From the NCBI GenBank assembly GCA_937934295.1, contig CALHAI010000008.1:32998-96997 (forward strand): a DNA stretch of 64,000 nucleotides, in the 5' to 3' direction. Positions 10,602 through 40,067 of this stretch are shown piece after piece (position 1 is the stretch's first letter; each line of letters begins with the position of its first letter). The position numbers and the translations under genes are program-made. Origin of the DNA: an uncultured Blastocatellia bacterium (GTDB taxonomy: Bacteria; Acidobacteriota; Blastocatellia; HR10). The notes beneath the pieces were generated by a model. It had not been told where the DNA came from. It ran no database searches and saw nothing but the letters and a program-made list of their open reading frames with translations.

Positions 10602-12107
10602 ATGCGACTTCACGCGCTCGATCTGGCGATCATCGCCGCTTACTTCGTGGGGACGACGCTCCTCGGGATGTGGCTCGGGCGCGGACAGCGCACGACGAGC
10701 GAGTATTTCGTCAGCGGGCGGAATCTCCCGTGGTGGGCCATCGCGCTCTCGATCGTGGCGACCGAGACGAGCACGGTCACCTTCATCAGTGTGCCCGGAT
10801 ATGCCTATATGAAGGATGCCAACGGTGAGGGAGGTGATCTGACTTTCCTGCAGCTCGCGTGCGGATACCTGATCGGGCGCCTCATCATCAGCGTCCTGTT
10901 CATCCCCCTCTACTTTCGCGGGGAACTTCTGACGGCCTATCAGGTCCTGGCTCACCGATTCGGTGAACGCGCGCGCCGCGCAGCCTCCGGACTCTTCCTC
11001 CTCACGCGGAGTTTGGCCGATGGCTTTCGACTCTTCGCCACGGCCATTGTGCTCGCGGCGGTGACCGGATGGAGCGATCCGACTTCGATCTTATTGATCG
11101 GTGGGGCGACGATCTTCTACACGTATGTGGGGGGACAACGAGCCGTCATTTGGACGGACGTCATGCAGTTCGGCGTGTATATGGTCGGGGCCTTAGCCGC
11201 CCTGGATGTGCTTTTGGCACGTCTTCCCGGCGGTTGGGAGGCAGCCTGGGCGATGGCCGAAGCGCAGGGGAAATGGCGAGTCTTTGATTTCACGTGGGAC
11301 CTGACCCGAAGCTATACCTTCTGGTCGGGGATCATCGGCGGCGCCTTCCTGACGATGGCCACGCACGGGACCGATCAACTCATCGTGCAGCGCTACTTGG
11401 CGAGCCGCACGGCGCGACAGGCAACGGCCGCGCTCTTGGTGAGCGCACTCATCGTCCTGCTGCAGTTCTTCCTCTTCTTGCTCCTCGGCGTCCTCCTCTT
11501 CGTCTTCTATGCGCACTTTCCGCCGTCGGTGCCGTTCACCAAGAGCGATCGCATCTTCCCATATTTCATCGTGCATGAGCTGCCGATGGGGCTTGTGGGG
11601 CTCGTCATCGCGGCCATCTTCGCTGCGGCGATGTCGACGCTCTCCAGCTCCTTGAACTCTTCGGCGGCGGCAGTGGTGACGGATTTCTATCGCCCCCTTC
11701 GGGGTGAGGGTTTCTCGGAAGCCCACTATCTGCGCGTCGCTCGCAGACTGACGCTCGGTTGGGGGATCGTCCAGATCAGCGTAGCGCTTGTCGCCCGCGC
11801 GCTTTCGCAGCGCGTCGTGGACGAGGTCCTGGCGATCGCGGCCTTCACCAACGGAGCGATCCTCGGCGTCTTCTTCCTCGGCACGCTCGCGGGGCGCGTC
11901 GGCGAATCGGCGGCATTGGTGGGCATGGTCAGTGGGCTTTTGGTCATGCTGTATATCAGATTCTTCACCGCAATCGCCTGGCCGTGGTTCGTCGTGATCG
12001 GATCGGCGACGACGGTGATCACGGGCTTGGCGAGCCAAACGCTGAGAGAGATCGCTATCCGAAGGGTTGAACTGACGCGGATCGAGCGATCCCGAGCACA
12101 TCGCTGA
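10602..12107 (+). CDS. Sodium:solute symporter (SSS) family transporter
   Basis: About 13 hydrophobic segments; [42 protein letters not shown] motifs. Confidence 0.93.
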
Positions 12108-12115
12108 AGATCGTC

Positions 12116-13879
12116 ATGAAGCTGACGCAGAACGACTGGATCATTATCGTAGCGTACCTCGTCCTCTCGCTCGGGATCGGCCTCGCGTACACGCGACGAG
12201 CGGGTCAGAGTGTGGCCGAGTACTTCCTCTCAGGGCGCCACTTGCCGTGGTGGTTGGCCGGGACTTCGATGGTCGCGACGACCTTCGCCGCCGATACGCC
12301 CTTAGCCGTCACTGAGATGGTTGCCCGGCACGGCGTGGCGGGCAATTGGCTCTGGTGGAATTTCGTCATGAGCGGCATGCTCACGGTCTTCTTGTACGCC
12401 CGGCTCTGGCGGCGCGCCGGGGTGATGACGGATGTGGAGTTCATCGAGCTGCGATATGCTGGGCGGGCGGCCGCTTTCCTGCGGGGGTTTCGAGCGATCT
12501 ACCTCGGGCTCCTCATGAACAGCCTCATCATGGGCTGGGTGACTCTCGGCATGGCGAAGGTCATCGGCCTGTCGCTCAACATCGGGAAGTTGGAGGCGGC
12601 CTTCCTCTGCTTGGGGATCACAGCCTTTTATTCCCTGCTCTCGGGACTCTGGGGGGTCGTCGTCACGGATGCCGTTCAGTTTGTGATCGCAATGGTAGGG
12701 GCGATCGCGCTCGCCGTCTTCGCTCTGGAAGTCGTTGGGGGAATATCCGGGCTCATGGCGCGACTCCCGGAGCACTTCGGGAGCGTGGAAGCGGCGATCG
12801 CCGTCTGGCCGGGATGGGGATCAGCGTGGCTTCCCGCGGAGACGCTCCTCGTGTACATCGGTCTCCAGTGGTGGGCGTCTTGGTATCCGGGAGCGGAACC
12901 GGGAGGCGGGGGGTATATCGCGCAGCGCATCTTCTCGACCCGAGATGAGCGGCACGGCGTTTTGGCCACACTCTGGTTCAACATCGCTCACTACACGCTA
13001 AGGCCCTGGCCGTGGATTCTGGTCGCCCTCTCGGCCGTCGTCCTCTATCCCCATTTGCGCATGACTGATCCGACAGCCCTCTATGTGCGCGTGATGGTGG
13101 ATCATCTGCCTCCGATCTGGCGCGGATTGCTCCTCGCTTCCTTCGCGGCAGCGTACATGTCGACGATCGCGACGCATTTGAATTGGGGCACGTCGTATCT
13201 CATCAACGACTTCTATCGCCGTTTCGTCCGCCCTTCGGCAGATGAGCGGCATTATGTCCACGTCTCGCGCGTGGCGACGGGGCTCTTGGCGCTCATTTCG
13301 GTCATCGTGACGCTGAACCTACAGAGGATCACCGGGGCCTGGGAGTTGCTGCTCGGCTTAGGGGCAGGGACCGGACTCGTCTATTTGCTGCGCTGGTTCT
13401 GGTGGCGGATCAACGCCTGGTCGGAGATCGCTGCCATGACGACGGCTCTTACGGCCACCGTGGGACTGAAGATCGCGCGTCCCTTCTCCGAGGACGATCC
13501 CTTGCTCTACGCCAAATCCATGCTCGTGACCGCCACCGTGACGACGATAGTATGGCTGTTGGTGACTTGGCTCACCCCAGCCGAGCCCGAGGCGAAGCTG
13601 AGGGAGTTTTACGAGCGTGTTCGTCCGGGCGGCCCTGGTTGGGCTCCTCTCGCCCGACGACTCAACGTTCCGGCCCAGAACTCGCTCGCCCCGTATCTGG
13701 TGAGTTGGGTCCTCGGATGCGTGCTCATCTACAGCGTCCTCTTCGGGATCGGCGCTCTGATCTTTGGCCAATGGACCAGGGCTCTCCTCTCGCTCGGCGT
13801 CGGGATTTTCGCCGGTGTCGGAGCTCTCAAGCCCTTCGCTCGCCACCAAAATCCCCAAAAGGGGTTATGCTCATCATGA
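12116..13879 (+). CDS. Sodium:solute symporter (SSS) family transporter, a different subfamily from the upstream one
   Basis: EYFLSGRHLPWW, SMVATTFAADTP, GGGGYIAQR, AAYMSTIATHLNWG motifs; multi-TM. Confidence 0.93.
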   Translation: MKLTQNDWIIIVAYLVLSLGIGLAYTRRAGQSVAEYFLSGRHLPWWLAGTSMVATTFAADTPLAVTEMVARHGVAGNWLWWNFVMSGMLTVFLYARLWRRAGVMTDVEFIELRYAGRAAAFLRGFRAIYLGLLMNSLIMGWVTLGMAKVIGLSLNIGKLEAAFLCLGITAFYSLLSGLWGVVVTDAVQFVIAMVGAIALAVFALEVVGGISGLMARLPEHFGSVEAAIAVWPGWGSAWLPAETLLVYIGLQWWASWYPGAEPGGGGYIAQRIFSTRDERHGVLATLWFNIAHYTLRPWPWILVALSAVVLYPHLRMTDPTALYVRVMVDHLPPIWRGLLLASFAAAYMSTIATHLNWGTSYLINDFYRRFVRPSADERHYVHVSRVATGLLALISVIVTLNLQRITGAWELLLGLGAGTGLVYLLRWFWWRINAWSEIAAMTTALTATVGLKIARPFSEDDPLLYAKSMLVTATVTTIVWLLVTWLTPAEPEAKLREFYERVRPGGPGWAPLARRLNVPAQNSLAPYLVSWVLGCVLIYSVLFGIGALIFGQWTRALLSLGVGIFAGVGALKPFARHQNPQKGLCSS

Positions 13880-35729: not shown

Positions 35730-36311
35730 TCAGGAGAAGTGCCCACATAGCGCGAGGAAATTCCGGAGCAGAAGCTTTCCGGCCTGTCCCGTCATGATGG
35801 ATTCGGGATGAAACTGCACGCCCTCGCACACGAACTCTCGATGTCGCAGTCCCATGATCAAGCCGTCCGAAGACGTGGCCGAGATCTCCAAACACGAGGG
35901 CACCGACTCGCGCTCCACGACGAGCGAGTGATAGCGCGTGGCCGGGAAGGGATTCGGGAGATCGCGAAAGATCGTGCGACCATCGTGCATGATCATGCTC
36001 GTCTTCCCGTGCATGAGCACGGGCGCGCGCACAATGCGCCCGCCGAAGGCCCGCCCAATGGCCTGATGTCCCAAACAGACGCCGAGGATGGGGATGCGCC
36101 CGGCGAACGCCCGAATCACGTCCAACGTGACCCCGGCCTCTTCTGGCGTGCCCGGTCCCGGCGAGATCACGAGCGCCCGCGGCGAACGAGCCGCGATCTC
36201 CTCCACGCGGATCCGATCGTTCCGATAGACCTCCACCGCCGCGCCCAACTCAGCCAGATATTGCACGAGATTGAAGGTGAACGAGTCGTAGTTATCAATG
36301 ACGAGGATCAT
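35730..36311 (-). CDS. trpG: Anthranilate/aminodeoxychorismate synthase component II (glutamine amidotransferase)
   Basis: [37 protein letters not shown]. Could equally serve as PabA. Confidence 0.93.
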
Positions 36312-37456
36312 CGCCCCTCCTCCACGCGCACGACGCGGAAGTGGATCGGCATCTTGGTCACCGGGGCTTTCTGAGCATCGGTCTCCAGTTTCTCGAATTT
36401 CTCCAAGACATCCATCCCCTCGACGACGCGCCCGAAGGCCGTGTATTTCCCATCCAGATGTGGCGCGCGCCCGAGGCAAATGAAGAAGATGGCGCTGCCC
36501 GAATTCGGATCCTCCGGCTTCATCTGAAGCATGCCCACGATCCCACGATCGAATTCGATCTGGCTGATCTCGGCCGGGAGGAATTCGCACGCCCAACCGC
36601 GCCCCCAGAGCGACCGATCTTCGCCGCGCGTCAGCGGATCGCCGCCAAGCAGCATATATCCGGGATAGATGCGATGAAACGTCGTCCCGTCGTAGAAGCC
36701 CCCACCGGCGAGCGCGACGAAATGCCGCGCATGACGCGGGGCGACTTCCGGCATCACCGCGATCGTGATCTTCCCCAAGGGGCTCTCCAAAACGACGCGA
36801 TACCTCTTCAACTCCTCCGGGCGCGCGAGCGGCGATGGGCGAATCCGCACTGATTTCATCACGATGCGCTGCGTGGCCAACCCCTCAGCATCAGTCGGCG
36901 TCTCGGCGATCCTCTCCACCACGTCCATCCCTTCGACGACGCGCCCGAAGGCCGTGAATTTTCGATCGAGCTGTCCCTGATCGGTGACGCAGATGAAGAA
37001 CTGTGAGCCCGCGCTATTTGGATTCCCCGGGCGTAAGACCGCGCCCACAACCCCTCGGGTGAAGGGATGCTCGTTGAACTCCGGCGGCAGCCGATCCAAT
37101 CCCCCTCGCCCCAATGCTTCGCGCGGCGTGCGCGGATTGCGACTCAGAGGATCTCCGCCCTGAATCAGGCTCTTCGGCAGGATGCGATGGAACGTCGTCC
37201 CATCGTAAAACCCCTGCCGCGCCAGATGGACGAAATACGCGACATGCCGCGGCGCATCCCGGACGAAGAATTCGATCACGATGGTCCCGAACTCCGTCTC
37301 GATGACTGCTTGAAGGTCTTTCAACTCCTCGACGTCAATCCGCTCCGGAGGCGGTGGCGCTTCCGCACCTGGGCGCCGCTGCGGAGCGACGCCCTCGGAA
37401 GGCCGCGCCACACTCCACAACGCCAATACCAGGAGAGCGATCTCTCGCGTCCTCAT
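36308..37456 (-). CDS. Secreted tandem two-domain cyclophilin-type peptidyl-prolyl isomerase
   Basis: Signal peptide; two copies of [10 protein letters not shown]...GGDP...NS(A)GS..FFIC...LD.K(F/Y)[12 protein letters not shown]. Confidence 0.92.
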
Positions 37457-38937
37457 AGCTCCGTGCTCGCCATCTCGATGGCGCGGATCACCGAACGGGC
37501 TTTGTTCACCGTCTCCTGATGCTCCCGCTCGGGAAGAGAATCGGCGACGATCCCGGCACCGGCTTGGACATAGGCCCGCCCGTGCCGGACGAGCGCCGTG
37601 CGAATGACGATGCAGGAATCGAGGTTCCCGGAATAGTCGGCGTAGAAGACGGTCCCGGCATAGATGCCGCGCCGTGTCGGCTCCAATTCGTCAATGATCT
37701 CCATGGCGCGAATTTTCGGAGCGCCGGTGACCGTGCCGGCCGGGAAACATGCGGCCAGGACATCGAAGCGATCTTTGTCCGGCCGACGTCGCCCGCGAAT
37801 CGTCGAGACCAAATGCATGACATGCGAGTAGCGTTCGACGACCATCAGGTCGGTGACCTCTACCGAGCCGGGGGCAGCCACGCGCCCGACATCATTGCGC
37901 CCCAAATCCACGAGCATCACATGCTCGGCCCTCTCTTTCTCATCCGCGAGCAAGTCGGATTCGAGTGCGCGATCCTCAGCGTCGGTCGCCCCTCGCGGGC
38001 GCGTTCCCGCGATCGGACGATAGGTGATCTCCTCCCCCACGAGCCGCACAAGCATCTCCGGCGACGCGCCGACCAGATGCATCCCGTCCAGCTCCATGTA
38101 GAACATGTACGGCGAGGGATTGATCATCCGCAGCGCCCGATACACTTGAAACGGGTCGAGATCGCCCACCTCGACCTCGAATCGCTGTGAGAGGACGATT
38201 TGAAAGGCATCACCGCGCGCGATGTAGTCCTTCGCCCGGCGCACCCGCTGCTCGAACTCATCCGGCTTCATGTTGGAGCGCACAAGGAGCGGATGGGCCG
38301 GCGCACTCGTTCTCGGGATCTCCACAGAGCGCTGCAGCAGCGCTTCCATCGCTTCGATCTCGGCGACGGCGTGCTCATACTTCTCTCGCAACCGATGCTC
38401 GCGTCCGCCAGTGAAAACGTTGGCGACGAGAAGAATCTGATGGCGCGCGTGATCGAAGGCCAGCAAGGTCGAGTAGAACATCACCTGAGCGAGATCGAGC
38501 GGCAGATCGTTCTGCGCGCGCGCCGGAATGCGCTCGAACCACCGCACGGCATCGTAGGCCATATAGCCGACCGCCCCCGCCGTGAAGGGCGGCAGACCCG
38601 GCCACGTCACGGGATGATACGAAGCCGTCAGCTCCCGCAAGAGGTCGAGGAAAGCGTCGCCGCGCTCGACCCGTTCGTGAGCCGCCTCGACCACACAGTG
38701 CTCCTCCTGCGCACGAACGACCGTATGCGGATTCGCCCCGATGAAGGAATAGCGGGCGATTTTCTCCCCCCCTTCGACCGATTCGAGTAAGAAGGGGAAC
38801 CGCGCCTGCGCACGAAGGCGTAGGAACGCCGAGACGGGCGTGAGCATATCGGCCGCAATGACCTTCGTCACGGGGATGACATTCCCCTCTCGCGCCAGAT
38901 CGCGCACCTCCGCGAACGTCGGTCGAATCATTCCCAT
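37453..38937 (-). CDS. trpE: Anthranilate synthase component I
   Basis: LTPVSAF, LLESVEGGE..ARYS, NPSPYMF, PIAGTRPRG, KERAEHVMLVDLGRND, ERYSHVMH, FPAGTVTGAPK.RAM, QAGAGIVADS. Confidence 0.95.
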   Translation of the reverse strand: MGMIRPTFAEVRDLAREGNVIPVTKVIAADMLTPVSAFLRLRAQARFPFLLESVEGGEKIARYSFIGANPHTVVRAQEEHCVVEAAHERVERGDAFLDLLRELTASYHPVTWPGLPPFTAGAVGYMAYDAVRWFERIPARAQNDLPLDLAQVMFYSTLLAFDHARHQILLVANVFTGGREHRLREKYEHAVAEIEAMEALLQRSVEIPRTSAPAHPLLVRSNMKPDEFEQRVRRAKDYIARGDAFQIVLSQRFEVEVGDLDPFQVYRALRMINPSPYMFYMELDGMHLVGASPEMLVRLVGEEITYRPIAGTRPRGATDAEDRALESDLLADEKERAEHVMLVDLGRNDVGRVAAPGSVEVTDLMVVERYSHVMHLVSTIRGRRRPDKDRFDVLAACFPAGTVTGAPKIRAMEIIDELEPTRRGIYAGTVFYADYSGNLDSCIVIRTALVRHGRAYVQAGAGIVADSLPEREHQETVNKARSVIRAIEMASTEL

Positions 38938-38941
38938 GCGT

Positions 38942-39625
38942 TCACCTCGACGGCAAGACGCGGCTCTCGCTCGCTCGCCCCGTACGACTCCGCAGCTCGA
39001 AGAGAATGTCTCTCGGATTCAGCTCCCGATCGGCCATCAGCACAAGCAGATGGTAGAAGAGATCGGCGATCTTGCCGCTGAGCTCCTTCTTCGATCCCGC
39101 TTTGGCCGCGATGGCCGTGTCCACGAGCTGTTCGCCCAGGCGCCGCAGGATGACATCCACACCGCCGCTGAGCAAGAGGGCCGTGTACGAATTCTCCGGA
39201 CGTTCGCGATTTCGCTCTTGAATGAACTCGAACAACTCGGCGAGCAGAATCCCCATCTCCATCGAAGCGAGCCCCACGACCGAGACTTCATCCCGCTTCT
39301 CCTCCAGCTCCGCGAGCTCTCGAAAGAAGCATGTCCCTTCGCCCGTGCGACAAGCCGGACCGCGCGGATCCACTTTCACGATCAAGGCGTCCCCATCGCA
39401 ATCCACGATGATGTTCACGACGCGCTGCGTATTCCCCTCAGCTCCCACCTCCCGTTGCACGCACCGAGCGCGCGCGTTCCAGGTGTGCGTCTCGCCCGTT
39501 CGCAGCGTGAGCGCCAAGGCCTCGGCGTTCATATAGGCGAGCATGAGGATGCCTCCCGTCTCATGATCCTGAATGATCGCAGGGATCAAGCCGCGTTCGT
39601 CGAAGCGCAGCCCTTGGATCACCAT
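38942..39625 (-). CDS. hisIE: HisI-HisE fusion homologue with degenerate catalytic motifs
   Basis: HisI-like FDERGLIPAIIQD..LMLAYMN..DCDGD..GPAC.TG..TCFF and HisE-like SYT.LL..G...ADLFYHLLV. The SRSR/LWxKGETSG and EExxE...ExxD motifs are altered (see findings). Confidence 0.8.
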   Translation of the reverse strand: MVIQGLRFDERGLIPAIIQDHETGGILMLAYMNAEALALTLRTGETHTWNARARCVQREVGAEGNTQRVVNIIVDCDGDALIVKVDPRGPACRTGEGTCFFRELAELEEKRDEVSVVGLASMEMGILLAELFEFIQERNRERPENSYTALLLSGGVDVILRRLGEQLVDTAIAAKAGSKKELSGKIADLFYHLLVLMADRELNPRDILFELRSRTGRASESRVLPSR

Positions 39626-39672
39626 AGCCCCCTTCGCCTCGATCGCGCTGCTCCCCCAGAAAATCCTTGGGA

Positions 39673-39702
39673 AATGTACGCCAGGAAGACAGAGACTGTC
39701 AA
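39673..39702 (-). promoter_or_regulatory. sigma70 promoter of the hisIE-trpE-cyclophilin-trpG unit
   Basis: Minus strand TTGACA (39702-39697), N18, TACATT (39678-39673). Confidence 0.65.
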
Positions 39703-39740
39703 CGACGGCACTCGACGCCCGAGTCCCCAAACAAAGTCCC

Positions 39741-40067
39741 TCACGGAACGTTCTCGCCCGACGTCCATCCGGGCGGCTCCGGCAACCAATCGCGCGTGAA
39801 GATGTCGGCTCCCGTTAAACCAACGATCAAGAGGAACCAAAAGAGCGCAGCGCCGACAAACCCCCAGATCAACCGCGGGCTGTATTTCAAGTGCATGAAG
39901 TAGAAGACGACAAGGAGCGCCTTGGTCGTCGCCAGCGCAAGCGCCACAGAGATGTTCAACCATCCGAGATCGTAAAAGGCCACATCCACCGTCACCAGCG
40001 TCAGCAGCAACAGCGTGATGAAGACGAGCCAATACACGCGTTGCGGAACGATCGGGGAATGCGCCAT
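39741..40067 (-). CDS. ctaF: Cytochrome c oxidase subunit IV (caa3 type)
   Basis: 108 aa, 3 TMs, L.LA..KALLVVFYFMHLKY motif. Confidence 0.9.
   Translation of the reverse strand: MAHSPIVPQRVYWLVFITLLLLTLVTVDVAFYDLGWLNISVALALATTKALLVVFYFMHLKYSPRLIWGFVGAALFWFLLIVGLTGADIFTRDWLPEPPGWTSGENVP

Follow-up and report, generated by a model that had tools for sequence, protein, structure and literature searches.

A half-fossil HisIE orthologue with a decayed HisI domain and a remodelled HisE metal site heads the trpE operon of a Blastocatellia bacterium

This study provided evidence that the HisIE-like gene directly upstream of trpE, in the window analysed here (a 64-kb stretch of contig CALHAI010000008.1 from an uncultured Blastocatellia bacterium), is a conserved and selected orthologue of HisIE that has become half fossil. 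The HisI-like domain of its product has lost the substrate loops and the catalytic histidine, and a separate canonical hisI is located in the his operon of the same genome. The HisE-like domain carries a metal site that was remodelled and then fixed across the order, and the genome encodes no other HisE homologue. We tentatively propose that the N-terminal domain is kept as a dimer scaffold, and that the HisE module may still handle phosphoribosyl-ATP (PR-ATP).

Membership in the HisIE family was supported by both domains occurring in one chain above the curated cut-offs: PF01502 (PRA-CH) scored 69.2 bits against a cut-off of 27, PF01503 (PRA-PH) 53.3 bits against 21.3, and the NCBIfam HisIE equivalog NF002747 was matched with 192.2 bits, narrowly above its cut-off of 187. 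The current automatic annotation, and public label, is bifunctional HisIE. The AlphaFold2 model had a mean predicted local distance difference test score (pLDDT) of 75, with 86-94 in the HisE-like domain, and its best PDB matches were HisIE 6J22 (E = 1e-16) and HisE 1YVW; further fold matches included dCTPase and MazG. The HisE-like domain formed the four-helix bundle and superimposed on HisE of B. cereus (1YVW) with a target-normalised TM-score of 0.91 and a root-mean-square deviation of 1.4 Å. The predicted structure thus retains the fold, as the initial annotation had stated. Like the canonical enzymes (NF002747; the structures 6J22/6J2L of Shigella flexneri and 7BGM of Medicago HISN2, hereafter MtHISN2; the kinetics of Acinetobacter baumannii HisIE, PMC10242683), the window protein has the two-domain architecture, the fold and the length of HisIE, together with the Zn cysteine triad, the DxDxD motif and the N1-phosphoribosyl-binding residues. 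Unlike them, it is without SRSR/WxKGETSG and the catalytic His, and two of the three main HisE metal ligands are replaced by Gln and Lys.

In a maximum-likelihood tree, all degenerate sequences formed one clade (Shimodaira-Hasegawa-like approximate likelihood ratio test 100) nested among the canonical Blastocatellia HisIE, with a stem of 1.09 substitutions per site and long internal branches. This degenerate clade is the window's order, comprising families f1, f2 and f3 and about 20 metagenomic proteins publicly labelled as Blastocatellia HisIE. A search of genome contigs with the family alignment recovered mostly canonical HisIE of other phyla and zero members of the degenerate clade. The arrangement hisIE-trpE-cyclophilin-trpG was found with a fully canonical HisIE in G012, G014, G022 and G028, and hisIE-trpE at least in G019 and G039; these relatives are without any other HisI. 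Since the same synteny surrounds canonical HisIE, the window gene is a vertical orthologue, and its linkage to trpE predates the degeneration; the four-gene arrangement is ancestral in Blastocatellia. Therefore, the linkage is uninformative about a new role. The TrpE-related regulatory or scaffold role proposed in the initial annotation gains no support from it, as the linkage occurs in six lineages with canonical HisIE and is missing in the degenerate family f2, where hisIE is detached from trpE and its retention is thus independent of that gene. In one f2 genome (G010), the degenerate hisIE lies between moeA/moaC-like genes and a gene for a Clp-like AAA+ ATPase (L032, 6579-7268); in another (G008, L034), a cyclophilin directly follows it, with no trpE or trpG there. 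Gene loss was considered for G002 and G005 and rejected, because trpE is missing there too and the region was not assembled.

The motifs of the HisI-like domain were compared in an alignment to 109 canonical Blastocatellia HisIE, in which WSRSRxELWHKGxTSG, the H of ACHTG, GEExxE and ExxDL are 90-100% conserved. In the window protein, WNARARCVQREVGAEG stands in place of WSRSRxELWHKGxTSG. The SRS(R) and W-x-K-G-E-T-S-G positions, more than 95% conserved in the canonical sequences, are high-entropy in the degenerate clade, where the substrate loop exceeds 2 bits of entropy and C76, C92, H93 and C99 are high-entropy as well; within the genus, nine consecutive loop positions vary. In MtHISN2, SRS and WTKGETS hold the two phosphoribosyl groups, and His143 is the general base of PRA-CH (PMC8102479). 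The residue aligned with His143 is R93 (ACRTG), a position occupied by R, Q or H within the genus. The three Zn cysteines (C76, C92 and C99) and the DCDGD Mg site are present and invariant in genus g1, and were lost in other lineages of the clade. The initial annotation had described these changes correctly, namely the replaced W-SRSR-x3-LWxKGETSG signature, the change of ACHTG to ACRTG, and the retained cysteines and DCDGD. As the substrate loops and the catalytic His are lost, the sequence strongly implies that HisI activity is absent from the window protein. The N-terminal half of the domain is conserved as in active enzymes (F8, D9, G12, L13, Q19, M32, N33, L37, T40, G44 and W49), and HISN2 dimerises by domain swapping, with neither domain expected to occur on its own as a monomer (PMC8102479); together, these data suggest a structural role for the domain.

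A separate canonical hisI accounts for the degeneration of the HisI domain. The source assembly (2.79 Mb, 94.5% complete) carries a complete operon, hisG-hisD-hisC-HAD-hisB-hisH-hisA-hisF-hisI, on another contig, and the window contains no other his gene, in agreement with the initial annotation. The product of the last gene, a monofunctional HisI, has every canonical motif (121 bits for PRA-CH; 157.6 bits for NF000768 against a cut-off of 126). The gene is present in every order member at least 87% complete, and in G005 (73%), and it ends the his operon in five of five genomes examined; the same operon was found in G001, G007 and G008, and its part from hisB to hisI was seen in G010. Outside the clade, the nearest sequences belong to Thaumarchaeota/Nitrososphaerota and Aquificota (Thermovibrio, Desulfurobacterium) with 60-74% identity, versus 43-52% identity to the N-domains of Blastocatellia HisIE; therefore, hisI was most likely acquired horizontally, probably at the base of the order.

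The search for a second canonical hisIE, proposed in the initial annotation, gave a divided answer, with no second HisE found and a separate monofunctional hisI located on the his-operon contig. Neither a second HisE nor a small MazG-like replacement was detected with PF01503 and PF03819 in 10-12 genomes, and a custom HisE profile run against all open reading frames (ORFs) of the window's own genome found no HisE beyond the window protein. That genome has an ordinary tandem-domain MazG adjoining lpxB, as do relatives with canonical HisIE. This genome thus has an otherwise complete his operon, and its sole HisE homologue is the window protein; a non-catalytic role is therefore no likelier than a residual or modified HisE role. 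HisG is encoded here in its long form, which includes a regulatory domain. Between hisC and hisB, a 415-aa HAD-family ORF (L006, 4819-6066), conserved in G001 and G007, matched TIGR01548 with 74 bits, below the cut-off of 140; judged by its sequence, it might supply the missing histidinol-phosphate phosphatase.

In the HisE-like domain, the same alignment showed that KKxGEExxE has become RRLGEQLVD and ExxDL has become KIADL. The PRA-PH metal site judged to be catalytically relevant in MtHISN2 consists of Glu214, Glu234 and Asp237, sometimes with Glu217 (PMC8102479). These residues correspond to Q166, K185, D188 and D169 of the window protein, so the claim that two of the four acidic ligands were lost and one was changed from E to D was confirmed. 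To assess how rare this site is, 1.84 billion cluster representatives at 50% identity were searched and the best 150 HisE domains were inspected: 141 have E-E-E-D at the four ligand sites, and the combination of Q with a basic residue occurred, among these 150, only in the degenerate clade. Of the clade's sequences, 94% have Q166 and all have K, R or H at position 185, which indicates that the site was remodelled and is not drifting. The clade also retains E165, E169 (D in the genus), A173-A174-K175 and L189-Y191-H192.

The residues of MtHISN2 that bind the N1-phosphoribosyl group of PR-ATP, R183, T197 and Y240 (PMC8102479), all have counterparts in the window protein, R138, T148 and Y191; T148 and Y191 recur in 94% or more of the clade's sequences, and 50% have R138. 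Y150 and K158 are invariant in Blastocatellia and relaxed in the degenerate clade. The active HisE of M. tuberculosis is without equivalents of these two residues and has Q at the Asp position of ExxD, indicating a certain plasticity of the site.

Selection was estimated from the ratio of nonsynonymous to synonymous substitution rates (omega) among five species of the genus, with synonymous distances of 0.26-0.8. Omega was 0.084 for the whole HisIE-like gene, 0.069 for the HisI-like domain and 0.094 for the HisE-like domain, in comparison with 0.105 for trpE and 0.065 for trpG. The ORF is intact in every order genome whose assembly covers the region and in more than 20 metagenomic sequences. 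These data indicate that the gene is not a decaying pseudogene, and that the relaxed selection which the initial annotation had named as grounds for abandoning its hypothesis does not apply. Catalytic residues are missing and purifying selection is present, the combination that characterises a pseudoenzyme. The earlier view that selection persists despite losses in both domains holds in so far as both are without near-invariant residues and both are under strong purifying selection; the two losses are not equivalent, as the HisI loop drifts and the HisE changes are fixed.

Decay of the HisI domain has occurred at least four independent times in the class, and a tree of the C-domain only separates four origins. 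In family f8, the trpE-linked HisIE combines a canonical HisE domain with an N-domain in which no HisI motif is recognisable, and hisF is followed by a separate hisI of Blastocatellia type; genus g9 and G035 likewise show independent decay of the HisI domain. All these proteins resemble the window protein in their position upstream of trpE, their decayed N-domain and their conserved N-terminal FDERGLIP..Q, and, as in the window genome, a separate HisI is present elsewhere wherever his genes were found. They differ in keeping a fully canonical HisE site (EE..E, E..D), whereas the site of the window clade is of the Q/K type, and its genus g1 has not lost the HisI metal ligands. The f8 (L047, L049, L051, L053) and G035 (L060) proteins, of about 215-230 aa and publicly labelled 'phosphoribosyl-ATP diphosphatase', are HisIE with a fully fossilised HisI domain, and the protein collection holds many more such PF01503-only proteins. 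For the G035 protein, the collection contained no close relatives with which omega could be estimated. The trpE-linked copy of g9, with its decayed N-domain and canonical HisE domain, has an omega of 0.06-0.11, and 0.02-0.03 in the C-domain. Two of the three g9 genomes (G048 and G049) have a divergent hisD. In G049, near this hisD on a short contig, one open frame joins HisA, a canonical HisI and HisE (L157, G049:C218, about 10937-12150, minus strand); this genome thus carries a complete second HisI-HisE besides the decayed copy.

In G015, G035 and G009, hisD, hisG and hisF were not found, nor was a canonical hisI (only a weak match to a decayed N-domain in G015), and all three keep the trpE-linked hisIE-like gene. 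Keeping the gene in a histidine auxotroph would have proved a role independent of histidine, but this argument was withdrawn: the congeners of G015, G048 and G049, carry hisD (G049 also hisA and a canonical hisIE), and therefore the absence in G015 is probably an assembly gap. G035, G009, G013 and G017 (97%, 78%, 100% and 100% complete) gave no match to hisD, hisG, hisF or hisI; true auxotrophy or assembly gaps would explain this.

Our preferred explanation, held with a little less than even confidence and drawn from sequence comparison, is that a fossil N-domain kept as dimer scaffold accompanies a remodelled HisE module that still handles PR-ATP. A vertically inherited hisIE, which in Blastocatellia ancestrally heads the operon with trpE, the cyclophilin gene and trpG, would have been joined in the order's ancestor by an archaeal/Aquificota-type hisI, which entered the his operon as its last gene and took over the cyclohydrolase step. 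The HisI domain would then have lost its phosphoribosyl-AMP (PR-AMP) binding loops and catalytic His, persisting as a folded and selected module, presumably because HisIE is an obligate domain-swapped dimer whose C-terminal domain needs the N-domain; the fossil domain may also dock free HisI. The HisE metal site was rebuilt once at the order's base (E166Q; E185 to K, R or H) and held since, and the domain keeps R138, T148 and Y191 for positioning the N1-phosphoribosyl group. The domain would still bind PR-ATP and most likely hydrolyse it by an altered metal chemistry, possibly with fewer Mg2+ ions and a cationic side chain at the phosphates.

Several findings weigh against this explanation. 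E166 and E185 correspond to two of the three ligands of the catalytically relevant site of MtHISN2, and E occupies them in 141 of the 150 HisE domains inspected. In the sister lineage G007, which keeps the full his operon, the ExxD motif reads K..A, and G009 is without all four metal ligands; this erosion suggests that catalysis by the HisE-like domain is dispensable in the order. Moreover, genetic evidence from Desulfovibrio shows that histidine synthesis there depends on a MazG-family protein (DVU1186-type) that substitutes for HisE (PMC5764234). This sets a precedent for making histidine with a monofunctional HisI where canonical HisE is missing, and the window genome has a normal tandem MazG. 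Unlike in the Desulfovibrio case, no additional or his-linked MazG was found here, and the only tandem MazG stands next to lpxB.

The main rival explanation is that the protein is a true pseudoenzyme with both sites dead and that PR-ATP is hydrolysed by the tandem MazG or an unrelated pyrophosphatase. We consider this rather unlikely. E166Q together with E185K/R/H is a classic substrate-trapping, metal-free pattern at two Glu that are near-invariant in the family, although constraint on Q166 and on the basic character of position 185 would equally be expected if the enzyme were merely modified. The ligands are progressively lost across the order with the ORF intact and trpE-linked, and both domains are under strong purifying selection; on the other side, f2 members are not adjacent to trpE. 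The Desulfovibrio precedent also favours a pseudoenzyme, but the genomes of the degenerate clade have no extra MazG-like or HisE-like gene relative to their canonical relatives. In g9, the trpE-linked copy is kept under selection despite the second canonical HisI-HisE of G049, which hints at a role beyond the need of the pathway; the g9 and f8 copies, however, keep all HisE catalytic residues, so that their retention appears to need catalysis. The strongest argument for a histidine-independent role disappears with the probable assembly gap in G015. Candidate roles for such a pseudoenzyme include binding of PR-ATP or another nucleotide without turnover, docking of HisI via a composite dimer interface, and modulation of anthranilate synthase.

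A more elaborate form of this idea, in our estimation improbable, is a double pseudoenzyme acting as a non-hydrolysing adaptor for PR-ATP or a nucleotide: the fossil HisI domain would heterodimerise with the xenologous HisI, Q166/K185 would hold PR-ATP metal-free, MazG would hydrolyse it, and the hisIE-trpE operon would serve as a histidine-tryptophan interlock on anthranilate synthase. The heterodimer is suggested by the construction of HisI active sites across the dimer, in which Cys126* and Asp129* are taken from the partner chain (PMC8102479), since genus g1 keeps exactly DCDGD, whose residues would be supplied in trans.

Comparable cases exist in other pathways. HisZ is a catalytically dead paralogue of HisRS that regulates HisG, and the dihydroorotase (DHOase)-like domain of yeast Ura2 is an inactive domain kept inside a multi-enzyme protein. 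In these cases, as in the window protein, a dead module is kept under selection in a biosynthetic pathway, with the activity coming from another gene; unlike them, the regulatory or scaffold function of the window protein is a proposal from sequence.

A neofunctionalised HisE-like enzyme, acting on another nucleotide (for example a house-cleaning nucleoside triphosphate (NTP) or a ZTP-like compound) or with a transition metal, to serve a need unrelated to histidine, is quite improbable. The all-alpha NTP pyrophosphohydrolase superfamily is diverse in its substrates, in line with the dCTPase and MazG matches of the model, His185 of f2 with Gln166 would suit Mn/Zn/Fe coordination, and the long stem branch of the clade is followed by a conserved state. 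Nevertheless, conservation extends to the residues with specificity for the N1-phosphoribosyl group of PR-ATP, no new conserved partner gene was found in the clade or the neighbourhood, and the histidine pathway would be left without any HisE homologue. Finally, the 4-nt gap, the Shine-Dalgarno-like sequence in the last codons and the accelerated divergence between lineages might suggest that the gene is on its way to becoming a pseudogene, or that its reading frame persists solely to couple translation to trpE. This was rejected as highly improbable, because omega is 0.07-0.09 in both domains, on par with trpE and trpG, the ORF is intact wherever the order's assemblies cover it, and f2 copies are not followed by trpE.

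The coordinates of the gene and its surroundings are collected in Table 1. The longest ORF, 38942..39730 on the minus strand, is TTG-initiated; this start at 39730 was rejected in favour of the ATG at 39625 (protein beginning MVIQGLRF), as the orthologues begin at the ATG and the frame of G001 is closed 10 codons upstream of it. Position 39702, the upper coordinate in the initial annotation, is the first base of the promoter-like match and lies outside the gene. The TTGACA-N18-TACATT promoter of the initial annotation is therefore present as a match, and chance alone would yield one in the 4.8 kb scanned. The 4-nt distance to trpE was verified (TGA at 38942-38944, trpE ATG at 38935-38937), and the Shine-Dalgarno-like GAGGTGA of trpE sits within the last codons of the HisIE-like gene. 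The region encoding the C-terminal tail GRASESRVLPSR (38945-38980, minus strand) overlaps this GAGGTGA; the tail shows zero amino-acid changes among the five genomes compared, with synonymous changes present. Concerning a leader RNA or attenuator upstream of the gene, an Rfam scan of the window found only tRNA, located elsewhere. The sequencing runs containing the HisIE-like sequence are DNA metagenomes only, with no RNA runs listed.

Table 1. Features of the HisIE-like gene, its operon and the separate hisI gene. Positions refer to the window unless another contig is named.
Feature	Position	Strand	Basis or remark
Coding sequence of the HisIE-like protein, 227 aa + TGA stop	38942..39625	-	orthologue of canonical Blastocatellia HisIE; synteny and tree
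HisI-like (PRA-CH) domain, residues 1-105	39311..39625	-	beta-grasp fold kept in the model, substrate loops lost, DCDGD and three Cys kept; omega 0.069
Former PR-AMP binding loop, residues 49-64, WNARARCVQREVGAEG	39434..39481	-	high-entropy in clade
Codon CGC = R93, at the catalytic His position of ACHTG	39347..39349	-	
HisE-like (PRA-PH) domain, residues 119-215	38981..39271	-	four-helix bundle, pLDDT 86-94; omega 0.094
E165-Q166-L-V-D169, remodelled ExxE metal motif	39119..39133	-	Q166 in 94% of clade
K185-I-A-D188, remodelled ExxD motif	39062..39073	-	position 185 always K, R or H in clade
Sigma-70-like promoter match TTGACA-N18-TACATT, 10/12	39702..39673	-	scan; 1 match expected by chance in 4.8 kb scanned
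Terminator-like hairpin, closes upstream caa3 oxidase operon	39749..39736	-	
trpE, anthranilate synthase component I	37453..38937	-	559 bits vs TIGR00564 cut-off 518
Tandem-cyclophilin peptidyl-prolyl isomerase (PPIase), N-terminal signal-like segment	36308..37456	-	start overlaps trpE stop
trpG, glutamine amidotransferase component II	35730..36311	-	start overlaps PPIase stop
Monofunctional hisI, 119 aa, end of his operon	L006 8806-9165 = own genome C4:146805-147164		

The hisIE-trpE-cyclophilin-trpG operon (window 35730-39625, minus strand; L027-L031, L035-L039) has overlapping or 4-nt junctions and is conserved in much of Blastocatellia. It is odd in placing an apparently exported double PPIase between the two subunits of anthranilate synthase. 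No description of this operon or of the remodelled HisIE variant was found in the searchable literature, and the class-wide operon is thus apparently undescribed.

The automatic annotation as bifunctional HisIE is misleading, since loss of the HisI step is strongly implied and the HisE step may be missing as well; therefore, models of metabolism built from it for these hot-spring Acidobacteriota would place both steps on the wrong gene. The order and its relatives offer a natural series of domain fossilisation, in which, after displacement by a xenologous hisI, the substrate loops decayed before the metal sites did. Furthermore, the fixed changes of Glu to Gln and of Glu to Lys/Arg/His represent a natural experiment on whether an enzyme of the all-alpha NTP pyrophosphohydrolase type remains functional with a reduced set of metal ligands.

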